Positions 3,154 through 56,150 of a stretch of 64,000 bases of DNA are shown one piece after another (position 1 is the stretch's first letter; each line of letters begins with the position of its first letter). Made by a program: the position numbers and the translations under genes. Under the pieces are notes generated by a model that had not been told where the DNA came from, did not search any database, and saw only the letters and a program-made list of their open reading frames with translations. This DNA is from an uncultured Gemmatimonadales bacterium (GTDB lineage: Bacteria > Gemmatimonadota > Gemmatimonadetes > Gemmatimonadales > GWC2-71-9), in assembly GCA_963812085.1 (NCBI GenBank), contig CAWETL010000009.1:374592-438591 (forward strand), written 5' to 3'.

Positions 3154-4086
3154 ATGGGAGTCCATCCTCCGGCGGTCTGGTTGGGATTCAGCATCCTGGT
3201 CTTCGCGTTGCTGGTCCTCGACCTGGGCGTGCTCAATCGCGAGTCCCACGTCCTCTCGATCCGGGAAGCCCTGGGCTGGAGCGGCGGGCTGGTGACCCTG
3301 GCGCTGCTCTTCGGCGGCTTCCTCTGGTACCGCGAGGGAGCCGCCCACGCGCTGGAGTACTACACCGGCTACGTGATCGAGCTCTCGCTCAGCGTGGACA
3401 ACCTCTTCGTCTTCCTGCTCATCTTCCAGTACTTCGCGGTGCCGGCCGAGCTCCAGCCCCGCATCCTGAAATGGGGCATCCTCGGCGCGCTGGTGATGCG
3501 CGCCATCATGATCGCGCTTGGCGCGCTGCTGCTCGCGCGGTTCAGCTGGATCATCTACGTCTTCGGCGGCATCCTGATCCTCACCGGCGTCCGGATGTTC
3601 CGCGGCGGCGCCGACCGCATCGAGCCGGAGCGCAACCCGCTGGTCCGCCTGGTGCGCCGGTTCGTCCCGATGGTCGAGGCCTACGACGGGCAGCGGTTCG
3701 TGACCCGGACCGTGAAGGGCTGGATGATCACGCCCCTGCTGCTGGTCCTCCTGGTCGTGGAGTGGTCGGACCTCGTCTTCGCCATCGACAGCATCCCCGC
3801 CATCTTCGCCATCACGCGCGACCCGTTCATCGTCTACAGCTCGAACGTCTTCGCCATCCTCGGGCTCCGGGCCCTGTTCTTCGTGCTGGCCGGGATGATG
3901 GACCGCTTCGAGTACCTGAAGCCCGGCGTGGCGCTGATCCTCGTGTTCGTCGGCACCAAGATGGTCCTGAACGGCGTCTTCCACGTGCCGATCGCGGGCT
4001 CGCTCATCGTCATCCTGTCGGTCCTGGTCGGCTCGGTGCTCCTCTCCATGCGCAAGGCCCGCTCCTCCGGCAGGACGGCCCCGTGA
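3154..4086 (+). CDS. TerC/Alx family integral membrane protein
   Basis: Multi-TM profile with YTGYVIELSLSVDNLFVF, the conserved TerC-family motif. The ATG directly abuts the moeA stop. Confidence 0.8.
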   Translation: MGVHPPAVWLGFSILVFALLVLDLGVLNRESHVLSIREALGWSGGLVTLALLFGGFLWYREGAAHALEYYTGYVIELSLSVDNLFVFLLIFQYFAVPAELQPRILKWGILGALVMRAIMIALGALLLARFSWIIYVFGGILILTGVRMFRGGADRIEPERNPLVRLVRRFVPMVEAYDGQRFVTRTVKGWMITPLLLVLLVVEWSDLVFAIDSIPAIFAITRDPFIVYSSNVFAILGLRALFFVLAGMMDRFEYLKPGVALILVFVGTKMVLNGVFHVPIAGSLIVILSVLVGSVLLSMRKARSSGRTAP

Positions 4087-9674: not shown

Positions 9675-9688
9675 GGATGATCGGGCAG

Positions 9689-9726
9689 GATTGCTTCGGC
9701 CACTGCGTGGCCTCGCAATGACGGAA
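9689..9726. repeat. solo hairpin arm, type A (reverse orientation) of the TTCTGTCATTGCGAGG repeat family
   Basis: The sequence is GATTGCTTCGGCCACTGCGTGGCCTCGCAATGACGGAA. It lies between the convergent stops of the methyltransferase gene and etfA. Confidence 0.8.
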
Positions 9727-27746: not shown

Positions 27747-27791
27747 AGTCTCACGTCTAGAGGTGCTCGGCACAAGTGGGAGCCCGCCCCA

Positions 27792-27881
27792 TTCTGTCAT
27801 TGCGAGGCCGCGAAGCGGCCGAAGCAATCTGGCCCGAGATTGCTTCGTCGGGCCCGCTGGGCCCTCCTCGCAATGACAGAA
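27792..27881. repeat. complete ~90-bp element of the hairpin repeat family (arm A forward + arm B reverse)
   Basis: Sequence: TTCTGTCATTGCGAGGCCGCGAAGCGGCCGAAGCAATCTggcccGAGATTGCTTCGTCGGGCCCGCTGGGCCCTCCTCGCAATGACAGAA. It is intercistronic, between the pyrophosphorylase stop and the leuA-like start. Confidence 0.85.
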
Positions 27882-27902
27882 CGCTGCGGCCGCGCACCGC
27901 AG

Positions 27903-29233: not shown

Positions 29234-29817
29234 CAAGTCTCCACCATGCGAAGTTTGAAGGAAGACGGCGACGTCACGCACGCGCGGACGCACACCCCGC
29301 ATCCGACGCAGCCCTCGGCCCGGATGACCGGGTGCCCGGCGTCGTCCATGGACAGCGCCCGCTCGCCGATCGGGCAGGCCTTGGCACAGACGCCACATTC
29401 CGACCCGTGAAAGGTGATGCACCGCTCAGGCAGGAGCTCGAGGACACCGAGGTGCTGGCCGACCCACCCGCTCGCCGGGACCGTCAGCGCCTCGGTCGGG
29501 CAGGCCGCCGCGCACGGCATGTCCGGGCAGGCGATGCACGGCTGCAGCTTCGGGTCGAAGAACGGCGTGCCGGCCGCGAGCCCCGCGCTCGGCGCGGCGA
29601 ACTGGATCGCGTGCGGCGGGCAGACCGGGCCGCAGGCGCCGCAGCGCGTGCAGGCAGTCAGGAACCCCACCTCCGGCAGCGCGCCCGGCGGCCGGAAGTA
29701 GCGCTGCTGGATGACGGTGTTTTCGGCCTTCTCGACCAGATTCTCGATCCAGTCGCCGACCATGTCGCGGAAGAAACCCCGCCGGTCGCCGCCGCGTCTA
29801 TCCCAGGGCCCGGTCAT
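29233..29817 (-). CDS. NapF/MauM-like ferredoxin-type protein with multiple 4Fe-4S motifs
   Basis: RRGFFR...RPPGALPE..FLTACTRCGACGPVCP matches the NapF-like N-terminus. Further clusters are CIACPDMPCAAACP, CGVCAKACP and CVGCGVCVRAC. Confidence 0.75.
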   Translation of the reverse strand: MTGPWDRRGGDRRGFFRDMVGDWIENLVEKAENTVIQQRYFRPPGALPEVGFLTACTRCGACGPVCPPHAIQFAAPSAGLAAGTPFFDPKLQPCIACPDMPCAAACPTEALTVPASGWVGQHLGVLELLPERCITFHGSECGVCAKACPIGERALSMDDAGHPVIRAEGCVGCGVCVRACVTSPSSFKLRMVET

Positions 29818-29844
29818 GCAGGAAGTCTAGCTGGCACGACCACT

Positions 29845-29942
29845 TTCTGTCATCGCGCGGCCATAACCCCTTCTGTCATTGCGAGGCCCCGACCCCATCT
29901 GTCATTGCGAGGCCCCTCGGAGCCCCTTCTGTCATCGCGAGG
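29845..29942 (+). repeat. tandem array of four truncated terminal motifs (stubs) of the hairpin repeat family
   Basis: TTCTGTCATCGCGCGG (29845), TTCTGTCATTGCGAGG (29871), ATCTGTCATTGCGAGG (29897) and TTCTGTCATCGCGAGG (29927). The full arm A follows at 29953, giving periods of 26/26/30/26 nt. Confidence 0.85.
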
Positions 29943-29952
29943 CGACAACCCC

Positions 29953-30382
29953 TTCTGTCATTGCGAGGCCACGCAGTGGCCGAAGCAATCTCAACGGCTG
30001 GTTGCGCCCTAGTTGATGCTGGCGTGCAACCATGGACCCATGCCTGGCCGCCGCTGCTATTTCGTCTACCTCCTCACCAACTCCAGCCGGCGCGTCCTGT
30101 ACACCGGCGTCACTCGGGACCTGCAGCGTCGCGTGGCTCAACACAGGGCGGGTAGAGGAGGGGCGTTCACGGCCCGATATCGAGTGAGGCATCTCGTATG
30201 GTTCGAGGCCCACGAGAACCCTGTGAGCGCCATCCTTCGCGAAAAGCAACTCAAGGCCGGCCCTCGGCACCGAAAGCTCGCCCTGATCCAGGCCATGAAC
30301 CCGACGTGGCGGGACCTCTGGGAAGAGTTGTAGACCGAGATTGCTTCGTCGGCCCCTTCGGGGCCTCCTCGCAATGACAAAA
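29953..30382 (+). mobile_element. candidate autonomous unit: arm A (29953-29992) - GIY-YIG ORF - arm B reverse (30337-30382)
   Basis: It has the same arm pair and orientation as the ~90-bp coding-free elements, but with a 98-aa nuclease ORF between the arms. Mobility is inferred, not shown. Confidence 0.4.
30040..30333 (+). CDS. GIY-YIG nuclease family protein (YhbQ/UPF0213-like)
   Basis: CYFVYLLT (GIY-type), RVLYTGVT (YIG), RRVAQH and REKQLK motifs in about 98 aa. Alternative upstream starts are TTG 30013 and ATG 30016. Confidence 0.85.
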   Translation: MPGRRCYFVYLLTNSSRRVLYTGVTRDLQRRVAQHRAGRGGAFTARYRVRHLVWFEAHENPVSAILREKQLKAGPRHRKLALIQAMNPTWRDLWEEL

Positions 30383-30396
30383 TGTCGGCCTCACCC

Positions 30397-30497
30397 TTCT
30401 GTCATTGCAGGGCCGCGCAGTGGCCGAAGCAATCTCGATGGTCGTGGATCGAGATTGCTTCGTCGGCCCCTGGCGGGGCCTCCTCGCAATGACAGAA
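30397..30497. repeat. complete 101-bp element of the hairpin repeat family (arm A forward + 14-nt spacer + arm B reverse)
   Basis: Sequence: TTCTGTCATTGCAGGGCCGCGCAGTGGCCGAAGCAATCTC-gatggtcgtggatc-GAGATTGCTTCGTCGGCCCCTGGCGGGGCCTCCTCGCAATGACAGAA. Confidence 0.85.
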
Positions 30498-30508
30498 CAA
30501 TCGTACCC

Positions 30509-33484
30509 CTAGATGGCCGGCGCGAAACTCAACACCCACCGGAAGCCCACCTGGTCGGCGGGATGCGTATCCTGCGCCAGTGAGGGCACGCTCACCCACA
30601 GCGGCACGTCGAACCGCGTCACAAACGAAGTGCCGCCGATCTTGTGCGATGCGCTCACCCCGATGCCGGCGTCGCCGAACACGCGGAGCGGGCCGTAGGT
30701 GGCGCTTCCGGTCGGCGGATCGCTGAGCGCCACGTCGCCAAAGGCGCCGACGGTGACCTTGTTGAACAGGTGGGCGCCGTTCCGGAGGACGAGGGTGCGG
30801 TCGAGCTGGGCGTTGAGCGCGTAGGCCTGCCGCGCGCTCAGGCGCGGGTCGAGCCCGCGCATGTTGGCGCCGCCCGGCGCCTGGTAGTAGAACCCCGGGC
30901 GCACCAGCAGCGCGCCTTCGGAGCGCAGGAACGGATTGTACAGCTGCTCGTACGGGTCGGCCCCGCCGAGGTACACCTGCCGCTGCTTGACGAGCGCATC
31001 CTTGGCCAGGGCGATGCCGGCGTAGCCGCGGAACGCGACCGCCATCTTCTTGCCCAGCGGGCGGCGCGCGGTGCCCACCAGCGAGGCCCGAAGGTATCCC
31101 TGGGTGTCGTAGCGGTCCTGGGTGCTGACGCCGGGGCCCTGGTTGTCGTACATCACGCCGCCGCCGAGCGACCCGTTCGTCCCAAGCTGCCAGGCGCCGC
31201 TCCGGTTGCTCACGCCGCCGTAGAGCGTGGCCTCGACCGTGCCGGCGTCCTGGTAGTAGCCGGGGTCGAGGAACGCCATGTTGGTCGTCGTGACCCAGCG
31301 GAGGGAAAGCCCCTGGGTGACGGTGGGCCCGAAGGTGAAGTGGTCGCGCCGCTTCTTCTCGAGGATGACCGTGGCGCCGGCGCGCCCTTCCATCGAGAAG
31401 CCCTCGAAGACCTGGCTCATGTTGGTCGAACGGAGTGCGGTCGGGTTCTTGACCCGGGCAAAGACGTCCAGCGTGCGCACCGGGTCGTCCGCGCCCCAGC
31501 CGGTGCCGCCGGTGATCGAGAGGACGTTCTGGTCGAACCGACCGAGATAGTCGCTCCGGCTCCGGAGGCCGAGCGTCACGCCGCCGGCGTCGTTGTACCA
31601 GCCCTCAGGTGCGAGGCCCAGCGTCATGTGGTCGCGGGCGGTCCTGGTGGAGAAGTAGGTGTCGAGGTACGGCTCGACCCGCCCCGGGTTGGAGAACAGC
31701 CCGAACGACTTGTGGTTGTTGAGGAAGTTCCAGTCGCCGGTCTGGACCCTGGGGTCGAGCGTCACGCCCTTCGGCTCGCTGTTGGTGTGGACTTCCACCC
31801 ACTCCCGCTCCGCCGTCCCGACCGACCGCACCGTGGCGGTGTCGGTGGCGCCTGCCACCTGCACCTCGACCGGAAGCTGCCGCGGCGCCTTCCGCAGCAC
31901 TTCCACCCGGGTCGTCCAGCCGCCGTCGGGGTTCCGCGCCTTGCTCGTCCGCCCGACGGCGTAGTCGGTCAGGTCCACGGCGTGGAGTTGCTGGGCAAAG
32001 AACGGCCCCAGCGGCTGGCGTGACGTGGCCTCGGCCACGGCGCGAAAGCGATCCTCGTTCACGTGGCGCAGCTTCCACTGGGCGTAGTAGTTGTGGAGCA
32101 CGTTCTGCATCGTGGTGTCGCCAAGTACGTACTGCAGGCGGCGGAGGAACAGCTCGCCACCGGAATAGATGCTCATGTTGTAGGTGAAGAAGTCCCGGTA
32201 GTCGTTGCTCACCATGCTCGTGGGCTCGGCGTAGCCGTCGAGCTGCAGTCCCAGCAGGAAGCGTTCGGTGCCGGCCACGCCGCCGGCGCCGCCGTGAGCG
32301 TCGGCGAACAGTCCTTCCTGGTAGGAGGTGAAGCCCTCGTCGAGCCATCCCTCACGCCATTCGTTGTTGGCCAGGATGCCCATCACGTAGTTGTGCCCGC
32401 CCTCGTGGACGATCAGCCCCTGCCCTGCCGAGCCGTCCATGATCATCATGGGGAATTCGGTGCCGCCCCCCTCGATCCGGTGCACGTTGGTGAACTGCGG
32501 CCAGGGAAACGTCCCGAAAGTCTGGTCCAGCCAGGCGAGGGCCGTTTCGGTGCGCTGGACGGCCACGCCACCGCCCCAGCTCTTCTCGTCGCCGGGTTGG
32601 TAGAGCACATGGACCACGACGTTGCCCCACTTCCCGCCCTCGTAACGGTAGTCCGGATTGAGCGACATCGCGAAGTGGTGCACGTCCGCGGCGTACCAGG
32701 TGACGACCTTTCGCCCCGGGGCGGCGGACGCCGTGGCGCAGCCGAAGCGCGCCGGATCGCCGTAGAAATCGCGCCGGTAGTCGATCGGTCGGCCCGGCTG
32801 GCGGCTCGCGCGAGCCCAGCCCGGGTCGCCGCAGACGGGAACGCCCGTCGCACCGATCACCTCGTCCTCGGGCACGTCGAGCCGGACCAGGAAGGTGCCG
32901 AACTCCCCGTAGAACTCGCCGGCCGGGTACAGCGCGTGCTCCTCCCAGCCGTACTGGTCGTACACCACCACCCGCGGATACCACTGCGCAAAGTCGAAGG
33001 CCCGGCCTCGGCGCCCCTGCCGCCGCGGTGGGATGGAAGGCCGCGCGTCCCAGTTCATCTCGGCGACGAGCGAGTCTCCGGGCGCCAACGGACGGGGGAG
33101 CATGAACCGCACGATCGTGCTGTCGGGCGCGAAGGGATAGATGGCCTCGACCGGCTGGCCCATGATCCGCACGTTCCGGACGTGGTTGAAGCCGTAGTTC
33201 GGGTCCTTGAGGTCGTTGTACCGGCGATTGTGCTCCACCGAGTCCGCGGCGGCCCAGCGGCTCCCGGGACGGAAGGCGTTGAGGTAGAGATGGAAGCTCA
33301 GCTGGCGGAGGGTGTCCGGCGAGTTGTTCCGGTAGAGCACCTCCTGGCGCCCGCTCAGGACGCCCTTGGGCTCGTCGAGCGAGGCGTCGATCTGGTAGGC
33401 CACGAATTGCTGCCAGTACGGCGCGGGCCCGGTGCCGGGCGTGGCCTGCTGGAGGCTGGCGAGCGCAACGAGGGCGAGGAGCAT
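30509..33484 (-). CDS. M1 family metallopeptidase with ~450-aa C-terminal extension
   Basis: HEGGHNYVMGILANNEWREGWLDEGF (HExxH-18-E) and an upstream GGTEFP (GxMEN-like) motif. The N-terminal LLALVALASLQQA looks signal-like. The C-terminal half has an alternating beta-strand-like pattern. Confidence 0.8.
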   Translation of the reverse strand: MLLALVALASLQQATPGTGPAPYWQQFVAYQIDASLDEPKGVLSGRQEVLYRNNSPDTLRQLSFHLYLNAFRPGSRWAAADSVEHNRRYNDLKDPNYGFNHVRNVRIMGQPVEAIYPFAPDSTIVRFMLPRPLAPGDSLVAEMNWDARPSIPPRRQGRRGRAFDFAQWYPRVVVYDQYGWEEHALYPAGEFYGEFGTFLVRLDVPEDEVIGATGVPVCGDPGWARASRQPGRPIDYRRDFYGDPARFGCATASAAPGRKVVTWYAADVHHFAMSLNPDYRYEGGKWGNVVVHVLYQPGDEKSWGGGVAVQRTETALAWLDQTFGTFPWPQFTNVHRIEGGGTEFPMMIMDGSAGQGLIVHEGGHNYVMGILANNEWREGWLDEGFTSYQEGLFADAHGGAGGVAGTERFLLGLQLDGYAEPTSMVSNDYRDFFTYNMSIYSGGELFLRRLQYVLGDTTMQNVLHNYYAQWKLRHVNEDRFRAVAEATSRQPLGPFFAQQLHAVDLTDYAVGRTSKARNPDGGWTTRVEVLRKAPRQLPVEVQVAGATDTATVRSVGTAEREWVEVHTNSEPKGVTLDPRVQTGDWNFLNNHKSFGLFSNPGRVEPYLDTYFSTRTARDHMTLGLAPEGWYNDAGGVTLGLRSRSDYLGRFDQNVLSITGGTGWGADDPVRTLDVFARVKNPTALRSTNMSQVFEGFSMEGRAGATVILEKKRRDHFTFGPTVTQGLSLRWVTTTNMAFLDPGYYQDAGTVEATLYGGVSNRSGAWQLGTNGSLGGGVMYDNQGPGVSTQDRYDTQGYLRASLVGTARRPLGKKMAVAFRGYAGIALAKDALVKQRQVYLGGADPYEQLYNPFLRSEGALLVRPGFYYQAPGGANMRGLDPRLSARQAYALNAQLDRTLVLRNGAHLFNKVTVGAFGDVALSDPPTGSATYGPLRVFGDAGIGVSASHKIGGTSFVTRFDVPLWVSVPSLAQDTHPADQVGFRWVLSFAPAI

Positions 33485-35149: not shown

Positions 35150-35235
35150 TTCTGTCATTGCGAGGAGGCCCCTCGGGGCCGACGAAGCAACCTCGGGCCA
35201 GATTGCTTCGGCCACCACGTGGCCTCGCAATGACA
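35150..35235. repeat. complete 86-bp element of the hairpin repeat family, flipped (arm B forward + arm A reverse)
   Basis: Sequence: TTCTGTCATTGCGAGGAGGCCCCTCGGGGCCGACGAAGCAACCTCgggccAGATTGCTTCGGCCACCACGTGGCCTCGCAATGACA. It lies between the atpB stop and the atpE start. Confidence 0.85.
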
Positions 35236-35259
35236 CAAGCGAACTGTGCTGCGCACTCC

Positions 35260-50550: not shown

Positions 50551-50590
50551 GAGATTGCGTCGGCCGCGACGCGGCCTCGCAATGACAGAA
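50551..50590. repeat. solo hairpin arm, type A (reverse orientation)
   Basis: The sequence is GAGATTGCGTCGGCCGCGACGCGGCCTCGCAATGACAGAA. It lies between the argF stop and the gcvT start. Confidence 0.8.
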
Positions 50591-56093: not shown

Positions 56094-56112
56094 GAGTGCA
56101 AATCCCCAACCA

Positions 56113-56150
56113 GGTTGCTCCGACCGCCACGCGGCCTCGCAATGACAGAA
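56113..56150. repeat. solo hairpin arm, type A (reverse orientation, degenerate inner end)
   Basis: The sequence is GGTTGCTCCGACCGCCACGCGGCCTCGCAATGACAGAA. It lies between the xerC stop and the hslV start. Confidence 0.7.

Follow-up and report, generated by a model that had tools for sequence, protein, structure and literature searches.

An arm-bracketed GIY-YIG nuclease gene of the Ssn family and its gene-less doublets vary in presence among related genomes

We analysed a 64,000-nt stretch (70% G+C) of contig CAWETL010000009.1 from an uncultured Gemmatimonadales bacterium; this whole stretch is referred to as the window, and all window counts refer to its full length. Between a Fer4 gene and a gene for an M1 peptidase, the window encodes a small GIY-YIG nuclease whose gene is bracketed by two hairpin-forming repeats of about 40 nt, here termed arms A and B. 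The same arms occur elsewhere in the window singly and as inverted doublets that lack the gene. By sequence, the open reading frame (ORF) is a member of the Ssn family (cd10448-type GIY-YIG proteins). Both the arm-gene-arm unit, about 430 bp long, and the doublets are present at some orthologous sites and absent at others among related genomes, and the unit occurs in several genomic contexts. The arm-bearing features of the window are as follows.

29845-29942, plus strand: head-only array of four partial arms, with heads at 29845, 29871, 29897 and 29927 (period 26-30 nt), immediately preceding arm A
29953-29992, plus strand: arm A, left end of the gene unit; A-type hairpin, head outward
29993-30039, plus strand: 47-nt leader containing a GTTG..N..GTTGA motif; its inverted repeat is at 29999-30012 / 30019-30032
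30040-30333 including the stop codon, plus strand: ssn-like gene for a 97-aa single-domain GIY-YIG nuclease (PF01541, SsnA homology)
30337-30382, minus strand: arm B, closing the gene unit on the right; B-type hairpin whose internal loop has additional GAG...GAC bases; head outward
30397-30497: gene-less doublet adjoining the unit; arm A at 30397-30436 (plus), 14-nt spacer, arm B at 30451-30497 (minus)
27792-27881: gene-less doublet between HMGL-like and NTP-transferase genes; arm A at 27792-27831 (plus), spacer GCCC, arm B at 27836-27881 (minus)
35150-35238: gene-less doublet, flipped, between atpB and atpE; arm B at 35150-35194 (plus), spacer GGGC, arm A at 35199-35238 (minus)
9687-9726, minus strand: single A-type arm in an intergenic spacer
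50551-50590, minus strand: single A-type arm between two minus-strand ORFs
56111-56150, minus strand: single A-type arm, degenerate, between convergent ORFs

Within the gene unit, 47 nt separate arm A from the start codon and 3 nt separate the stop codon from arm B. No second GIY-YIG copy was found in the window. A first-pass annotation of this DNA had described a 16-nt motif heading two kinds of arm, had placed arms A and B of the unit at the coordinates listed above and had identified the three doublets; all of this was confirmed, with the flipped doublet ending at 35238. Its 3-nt distance to arm B also stands, whereas the ORF is 97 rather than 98 aa and starts 47 rather than 48 nt after arm A. 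The three single arms and the four head-only copies were absent from that annotation.

The ORF product matches the Pfam GIY-YIG domain (PF01541) over residues 6-73 (E 7e-14), with no further domain. Its close homologs carry the names Gemmatimonadota or Gemmatimonadales. A tblastn search of PLSDB returned a chromosome of Neisseria gonorrhoeae (E 4e-17), in which the corresponding ORF is 94 aa long, has Y6, Y17 and E64, and lies amid copies of the NTS hairpin repeat. We took this protein as the ortholog of SsnA on the basis of its length, the three residues and the flanking repeats. In N. meningitidis, SsnA itself has 94 aa and a single GIY-YIG domain (CDD cd10448), and its catalytic residues Y6, Y17 and E64 are those altered in the published mutants (Chenal et al., 2025; PMC11893778). 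By BLASTP, the window protein is 48% identical to the N. gonorrhoeae ortholog over 89 aa (E 7e-27), against a homology criterion of E < 1e-10 used for the family by Chenal et al. (PMC11893778). Residues Y10, Y21 and E68 align with Y6, Y17 and E64 of SsnA and are invariant in 22 clade members, and a C-terminal WRDLW is common to the window protein and the N. gonorrhoeae ortholog. The protein thus falls among the stand-alone GIY-YIG domains of about 90-100 aa that have no extra DNA-binding domain. NCBIfam gave only sub-threshold matches, to the GIY-YIG parts of larger proteins. A search of PDB sequences found no Ssn structure and only weak matches to UPF0213 proteins (1zg2 and 1ywl; E 3e-4 and 0.014). 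These UPF0213/YhbQ-type proteins resemble the window protein in being small stand-alone GIY-YIG domains and differ in the weakness of the similarity; we know of no repeat association in that subfamily. The label YhbQ-like, used at first, is therefore less fitting, given E 3e-4 to UPF0213 versus E 7e-27 to the Neisseria protein.

The arms are defined by a shared 16-nt head, TTCTGTCATTGCGAGG, counted at up to two mismatches: 15 matches are present in the window versus 0.04 expected (0 of 100 shuffles). The tail, GAAGCAATCTC, has 10 matches versus 0.65 expected, and the tally for the 64 kb is 11 full arms and 4 head-only copies. The A arm (40 nt) consists of TTCTGTCATTGCGAGG, a 6-bp stem, a loop, the returning stem and CGAAGCAATCTC. 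The B arm (44-47 nt) has the same layout with extra GAG...GAC bases flanking the inner stem, which form an internal loop. As single-stranded DNA (ssDNA), an arm is predicted to fold into a two-part hairpin, in which ATTGC and GCAAT pair as the outer stem and an internal loop separates this from a 6-bp GC stem capped by a triloop. When 14 A-type arms of the window and its relatives were aligned, 98% of cells proved to be paired and the inner stem to show compensatory changes (one pair is AU in 5 arms, GC in 5 and CG in 2); the observed covariation score was reached by 0 of 500 shuffles. G5, C7 and C38 are invariant in these arms and T6 is nearly so, which sets the palindrome between GTC on its 5' side and C on its 3' side. 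The arms are thus oriented repeats with a GTC-ATTGC...GCAAT-C frame. All arms in the window sit in short intergenic spacers, some within operons such as atpB-atpE.

Arms accompany homologous genes in many phyla. An alignment of the clade was used to search genome contigs, which yielded at least 80 loci with 44-62% protein identity; together with the Gemmatimonadota loci L001-L003 these make 83 loci, 72 of them with full 250-nt flanks. The matches listed are distant relatives rather than close Gemmatimonadota, and were used for the association test and not for counts of paralogs in the source genome. Among the matches listed, an arm (GTCATTGCGAG...GCAATC) lies within 250 nt of the gene in 62 of 72 loci, and in 48 of the 72 the gene is bracketed heads-outward, the upstream arm being forward and the downstream one reverse. 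Over the 83 loci, arms number 5.1 per kb at up to 300 nt from the gene and 0.20 per kb in the remaining sequence, a roughly 26-fold difference. Both forms of arm occur across phyla, and A+B doublets were found in Sphingomonadaceae and Xanthobacteraceae. Many phyla use a 2-bp GCGAAGC mini-hairpin as the inner stem, which explains why a crude score for the longest inner stem barely told arms from shuffles across phyla. The bracket recurs in 9 of 9 Gemmatimonadota relatives fetched through GIY-YIG homologs (L001-L003 and L093-L097 were obtained in this way), although the upstream element of L096 is a head only. The proposed link between nuclease and repeats is supported by this enrichment and by published biochemistry for the family (PMC11893778), and the proposed bracket architecture by its recurrence. 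A fixed order of A forward followed by B reverse holds within the window and not across the family, where the brackets run (B,A) in 15 cases, (A,A) in 15 and (A,B) in 10, and where L003 and L097 have B-gene-A.

A system of this kind has been described, contrary to the first impression that it had not. In N. meningitidis, SsnA binds the hairpin repeat NTS (CGTCATTCCCGCGMAVGCGGGAATCYRG) as ssDNA only and in one orientation, does not bind RNA, and cuts 3 nt 5' of the repeat (5' of CGTCA); mutagenesis identified GTC and C as most important for cutting and binding (PMC11893778). The conserved G5, T6, C7 and C38 of the arms correspond to these positions. 'Ssn-related motifs' (SRM) flank the homologous genes of many phyla, and the arrangement NTS-ssnA-NTS was likened in the Discussion of that paper to an insertion sequence, with a parallel drawn to REP/RAYT (PMC11893778). 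The logic of a mobile pair, as proposed for the window, stands comparatively and not as a new system. The locus is of the same kind as the Ssn/NTS(SRM) system of Chenal et al. Shared features are a single-domain GIY-YIG protein of about 94-97 aa (48% identity, same Tyr/Tyr/Glu), a gene with oriented hairpin repeats to either side, the repeat frame GTC-ATT(stem)AAT-C, and intergenic dispersal of the repeats, also as heads-outward doublets. The hairpin here differs in its greater length and two-part build (an outer stem of 5 bp and an inner stem of 6 bp, separated by an internal loop) and in having A and B forms; the host is a member of the Gemmatimonadota. The arms of about 40 nt are most likely the cognate hairpins of the ORF product. 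Searching the literature for the arm sequence brought up nothing but primers that matched by chance.

Some details of the Neisseria material may be recorded here. Two N. gonorrhoeae chromosomes of 2.17 Mb are filed as plasmids in PLSDB (NZ_CP119142.1, positions 1879219-1884485 of which were used as locus L004, and NZ_CP119140.1). The ssnA ortholog in L004 has no in-frame ATG, GTG or TTG start and apparently starts with ATT. The NTS copies in L004 form heads-outward doublets of about 108 nt that lie about 250-260 nt apart.

The elements are polymorphic at orthologous sites. L001, whose GIY-YIG protein is 85% identical, has the gene order of the window (Fer4, GIY-YIG, M1 peptidase, ATP synthase) and lacks the head array and the doublets at 30397-30497 and 27792-27881; at the atpB-atpE site it has a single B arm where the window has a doublet. 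At strain level, 4.5 kb of L085 match the window at 97-99% identity, yet two segments are absent: the 671-nt composite at 29835-30505, which includes the head-only array, the gene unit and the doublet at 30397-30497, and the doublet at 27792-27881. Window positions 29835-30505 are represented in L085 by 12 nt, and 27756-27901 by 34 nt. Seven orthologous loci fetched through the neighbouring Fer4 gene (L085-L091) carry the M1/Fer4 spacer. This spacer is empty (35 nt) in L085-L089, and in L091 it holds only an A+B doublet, bounded exactly by TTCTGTCA...TGACAGAA; the empty L089 and the doublet-bearing L091 are 97% identical. In L090 the spacer (2006-2322) instead contains another hairpin repeat (GGGGTGGCCTCACGGCCACCCC..., a unit of about 75 nt present twice) and one leftover reverse arm head. 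Repeats of more than one family seem to collect in this spacer, as at a hotspot. Relatives thus show empty, doublet-only and occupied states, which supports the insertion polymorphism that had been suggested.

The second polymorphic site, the HMGL/NTP spacer (window 27747-27902), was extracted from relatives using BLAST anchors. The 27792-27881 doublet is absent from L085, where the flanks are 99% identical, and from L001, L086 and L088; L089 has a doublet in the opposite orientation and L090 a single arm. Two allele classes occur, one of about 44 nt that forms a hairpin and has no arms, and a diverged one with arms. These classes depart from the tree of the flanking genes and differ between strains whose flanks are 99% identical. 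The spacer looks replaced rather than interrupted, because a diverged flank is common to the alleles with arms (window, L089, L090) and missing from the empty ones. At the M1/Fer4 site, likewise, the occupied and empty classes do not follow the Fer4/cupin tree.

Alignment across contexts defines the ends of the unit. The arm-gene-arm unit is present in at least four genomic contexts among Gemmatimonadales, and in an alignment of five units homology runs from outer head to outer head, ending exactly at TTCTGTCA and TGACAGAA. Upstream of GTCA in 52 arms, T is found at positions -4, -3 and -1 in 94-98% of cases (49-51 of 52) and C at -2 in 65% (TTCT); conservation drops to background at -5. The edge at -4 coincides with the reported cut position of N. 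meningitidis SsnA (PMC11893778). The 30397-30497 doublet keeps 3 nt of the 5' flank of the unit, along with the 5 nt that follow arm A and the 10 nt that precede arm B in the unit. This retained interior supports an origin by duplication and internal deletion, in line with the earlier idea that the short elements are deletion derivatives. Identical doublets with a GCCC spacer occur at different sites and in different genomes, which suggests that doublets also proliferate in their own right.

DNA is hydrolysed by GIY-YIG nucleases, which are not known to rejoin it. For this reason, and in view of the missing target-site duplication, the altered flanking spacer and allele classes that depart from the gene tree, homing-like copying or arm-to-arm recombination is favoured over cut-and-paste. 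By analogy with SsnA of N. meningitidis, the enzyme would recognise GTC, ATTGC(stem-loop)GCAAT and C on whichever strand has that orientation, and would nick directly 5' of TTCTGTCA, the predicted cut position at the outer edge of each arm. A heads-outward doublet or unit would then receive one nick at each outer boundary, one per strand. The doublets would be derivatives of the unit that lost the gene, and spread would most likely proceed via nick-stimulated, template-directed copying or via arm-to-arm recombination, in a homing-like manner. We consider it highly probable that the locus comprises an Ssn-family nuclease with its cognate arms, and that the unit and the gene-less doublets are insertion-polymorphic cassettes, most likely spread in this homing-like way. 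Family membership, architecture, presence/absence polymorphism and occurrence in several contexts are shown by the data, whereas the cut position, Ssn activity as the cause of the mobility and any transposase-like role of the enzyme are inferred.

The likeness to REP/REPIN-RAYT and IS200/IS605 systems extends to hairpin repeats recognised as ssDNA, cleavage at a set distance from the hairpin, inverted doublets spread intergenically (REPIN-like) and an enzyme gene flanked by its own repeats. The enzymes differ, as those systems use an HUH tyrosine (Y1) transposase and the enzyme here is a hydrolytic GIY-YIG protein; no covalent intermediate or strand transfer is therefore expected. In IS200/IS605 both ends are on one strand, whereas here the arms are inverted and each strand thus has one cleavable end per element. 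Of the features that mark insertion sequences and miniature inverted-repeat transposable elements, presence/absence at orthologous sites and occurrence of the same unit in different contexts were found; a target-site duplication or defined target and a DNA-joining enzyme were not. With no target-site duplication and a hydrolytic enzyme, the element is therefore not to be filed as an insertion sequence.

Several observations weigh against the cassette interpretation. Recognition of the arms by the enzyme is proposed here from sequence features and by analogy with SsnA. None of the window arms matches the published SRM string, HGTCWYN(0-2)YYVSBRHN(0-5)WNVSBRGN(0-2)RNCYNB (PMC11893778), and no match lies near the gene in the 72 loci. 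The same expression does recover NTS copies in L004, and it misses the arms because their stem starts with TTGCGAG and is longer and two-part. The gene-nearest arms are heads-outward here and heads-inward in N. gonorrhoeae. The strain-level comparison involves one strain, L085, on a metagenome contig. The window and L001 share the occupied allele while closer relatives are empty, so that the change may have been a gain or a loss. At both polymorphic sites the occupied and empty alleles also differ in 8-36 nt of flanking spacer, and neither a target-site duplication nor a target motif was found 5' of the arms beyond the conserved TTCT. Such unclean insertions fit recombinational allele replacement at least as well as transposition.

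This last point leads to the main rival, in which Ssn and its hairpins are a domesticated host function and not a selfish mobile pair: cutting of incoming or exposed ssDNA at the arms would shape transformation and recombination tracts, and the arm polymorphism would arise via ordinary homologous recombination and slippage. Cutting of ssDNA at repeats, shaping transformation in N. meningitidis, is the only in vivo role shown experimentally for the family (PMC11893778). Whole-spacer replacement without target-site duplication is what distinguishes occupied from empty alleles, and the sharing of allele classes by non-sister lineages is as recombination would give. Recombination of this kind accounts less readily for a compact unit found in four or more unrelated contexts, where homology goes exactly as far as the heads, or for identical GCCC-spacer doublets at different sites and in different genomes. 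The flanks, moreover, are 99% identical up to the junctions; a comparison of the window with L085 showed no clustering of mismatches there, and thus no imported divergent tract. Competence in Gemmatimonadota is also not documented in anything examined in this analysis. We regard a domesticated host function as a serious but unlikely explanation.

Two other explanations fare much worse. If the arms were REP-like RNA elements (terminators or mRNA stabilisers), their proximity to the nuclease gene would be a coincidence, which is hard to reconcile with the 26-fold arm enrichment beside homologous genes across phyla among the matches listed. Their confinement to short intergenic spacers, some inside operons, would suit such a role, as would the different hairpin that stands in place of the arms in the arm-less HMGL/NTP alleles (class I). 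The arms lie in both orientations relative to transcription and have no T-tract, however, and the sole terminator-like match in 29800-30520 is inside the ORF and not in an arm. Rfam returned nothing relevant in a gathering search of the whole window or in an E-value search of 29800-30520, and SsnA of N. meningitidis binds the DNA hairpin, not RNA (PMC11893778). Together these make an RNA role extremely improbable.

Very improbable, too, is a classical homing endonuclease acting on double-stranded DNA, a phage-derived selfish gene or an anti-phage defence gene. The GIY-YIG fold is common to homing endonucleases, and there is a weak match to a PHROG endonuclease (E 4e-4). The protein is a 97-aa single domain without a DNA-binding extension, though, and has no intron or intein context; the group I intron endonuclease model TIGR01453 matches at E 0.09, far below its cutoff. 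PADLOC gave no match, and only one relative was found in 2.9 million viral contigs.

A broader version of the cassette reading would set Ssn modules apart as a separate class of autonomous mobile elements, in which the nickase cuts exactly at the outer arm edges and host repair copies units and doublets to new intergenic sites. We offer this tentatively, as a possibility with less than even chances. If true, these modules would be a nuclease-driven, homing-like counterpart of REPIN/RAYT without the known transposase chemistries. The Ssn paper left open what role Ssn has outside Neisseria and whether NTS-ssnA-NTS is mobile, and the locus bears on both questions. New here are the empty, doublet-only and occupied alleles at one site, including at strain level, the occurrence of the 430-bp unit in several contexts, its sharp ends at the predicted position of the nick, and the wide spread over many phyla of a TTGCGAG-type arm (GTCATTGCGAG...GAAGCAATC) in A and B forms. 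This type of arm escapes the SRM string, and surveys that use the string therefore likely undercount the repeats of the family. For users of such enzymes, the locus provides a new candidate enzyme/site pair for site-specific cutting of ssDNA.

Arrangements in individual relatives include several further variants. Relative to an M1-like gene, the GIY-YIG gene is on one side in L002 (A-gene-B) and on the other in L003 and L097 (B-gene-A), which is consistent with inversion between inverted arms. L070 encodes, in the same 12-kb locus, a first GIY-YIG paralog with TTGCGAG-type arms and a second (3530-3763) with an NTS-like arm, GTCATTCCGATGAAAATCGGAATC, upstream (3441-3464); one genome may thus harbour two enzymes, each with its cognate repeat. 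The M1 peptidase gene of L085 (1-1372, corresponding to window 30506-31877) has two single-base gaps that would be frameshifts and may be metagenome assembly errors or mark a pseudogene.

The region upstream of the gene shows additional structure. The GTTG...GTTGA motif and inverted repeat of the leader (29993-30039) are kept in units from four genomic contexts (L001, L002, L093 and L096 aligned), making the leader a candidate promoter or operator inside the unit; the distance of the motif to the ATG hints at a very short leader. Head-only copies upstream of a full arm and in the same orientation, like those of the window, are also present in L002 (5886-5911), L096 (3854-3915), L017 and L064. 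They consist of the 5' ~20 nt of an arm and a few more bases, with a period of 20-32 nt, in several unrelated genomes and phyla. One speculation is that the stacked heads record abortive copying halted at the hairpin. On the minus strand of 29824-29853, the reverse complement of the outermost head provides a -35-like ATGACA, 18 nt from a conserved TAGACT upstream of the Fer4 gene. Judging from this consensus scan, insertion upstream of Fer4 may have made or changed a promoter.

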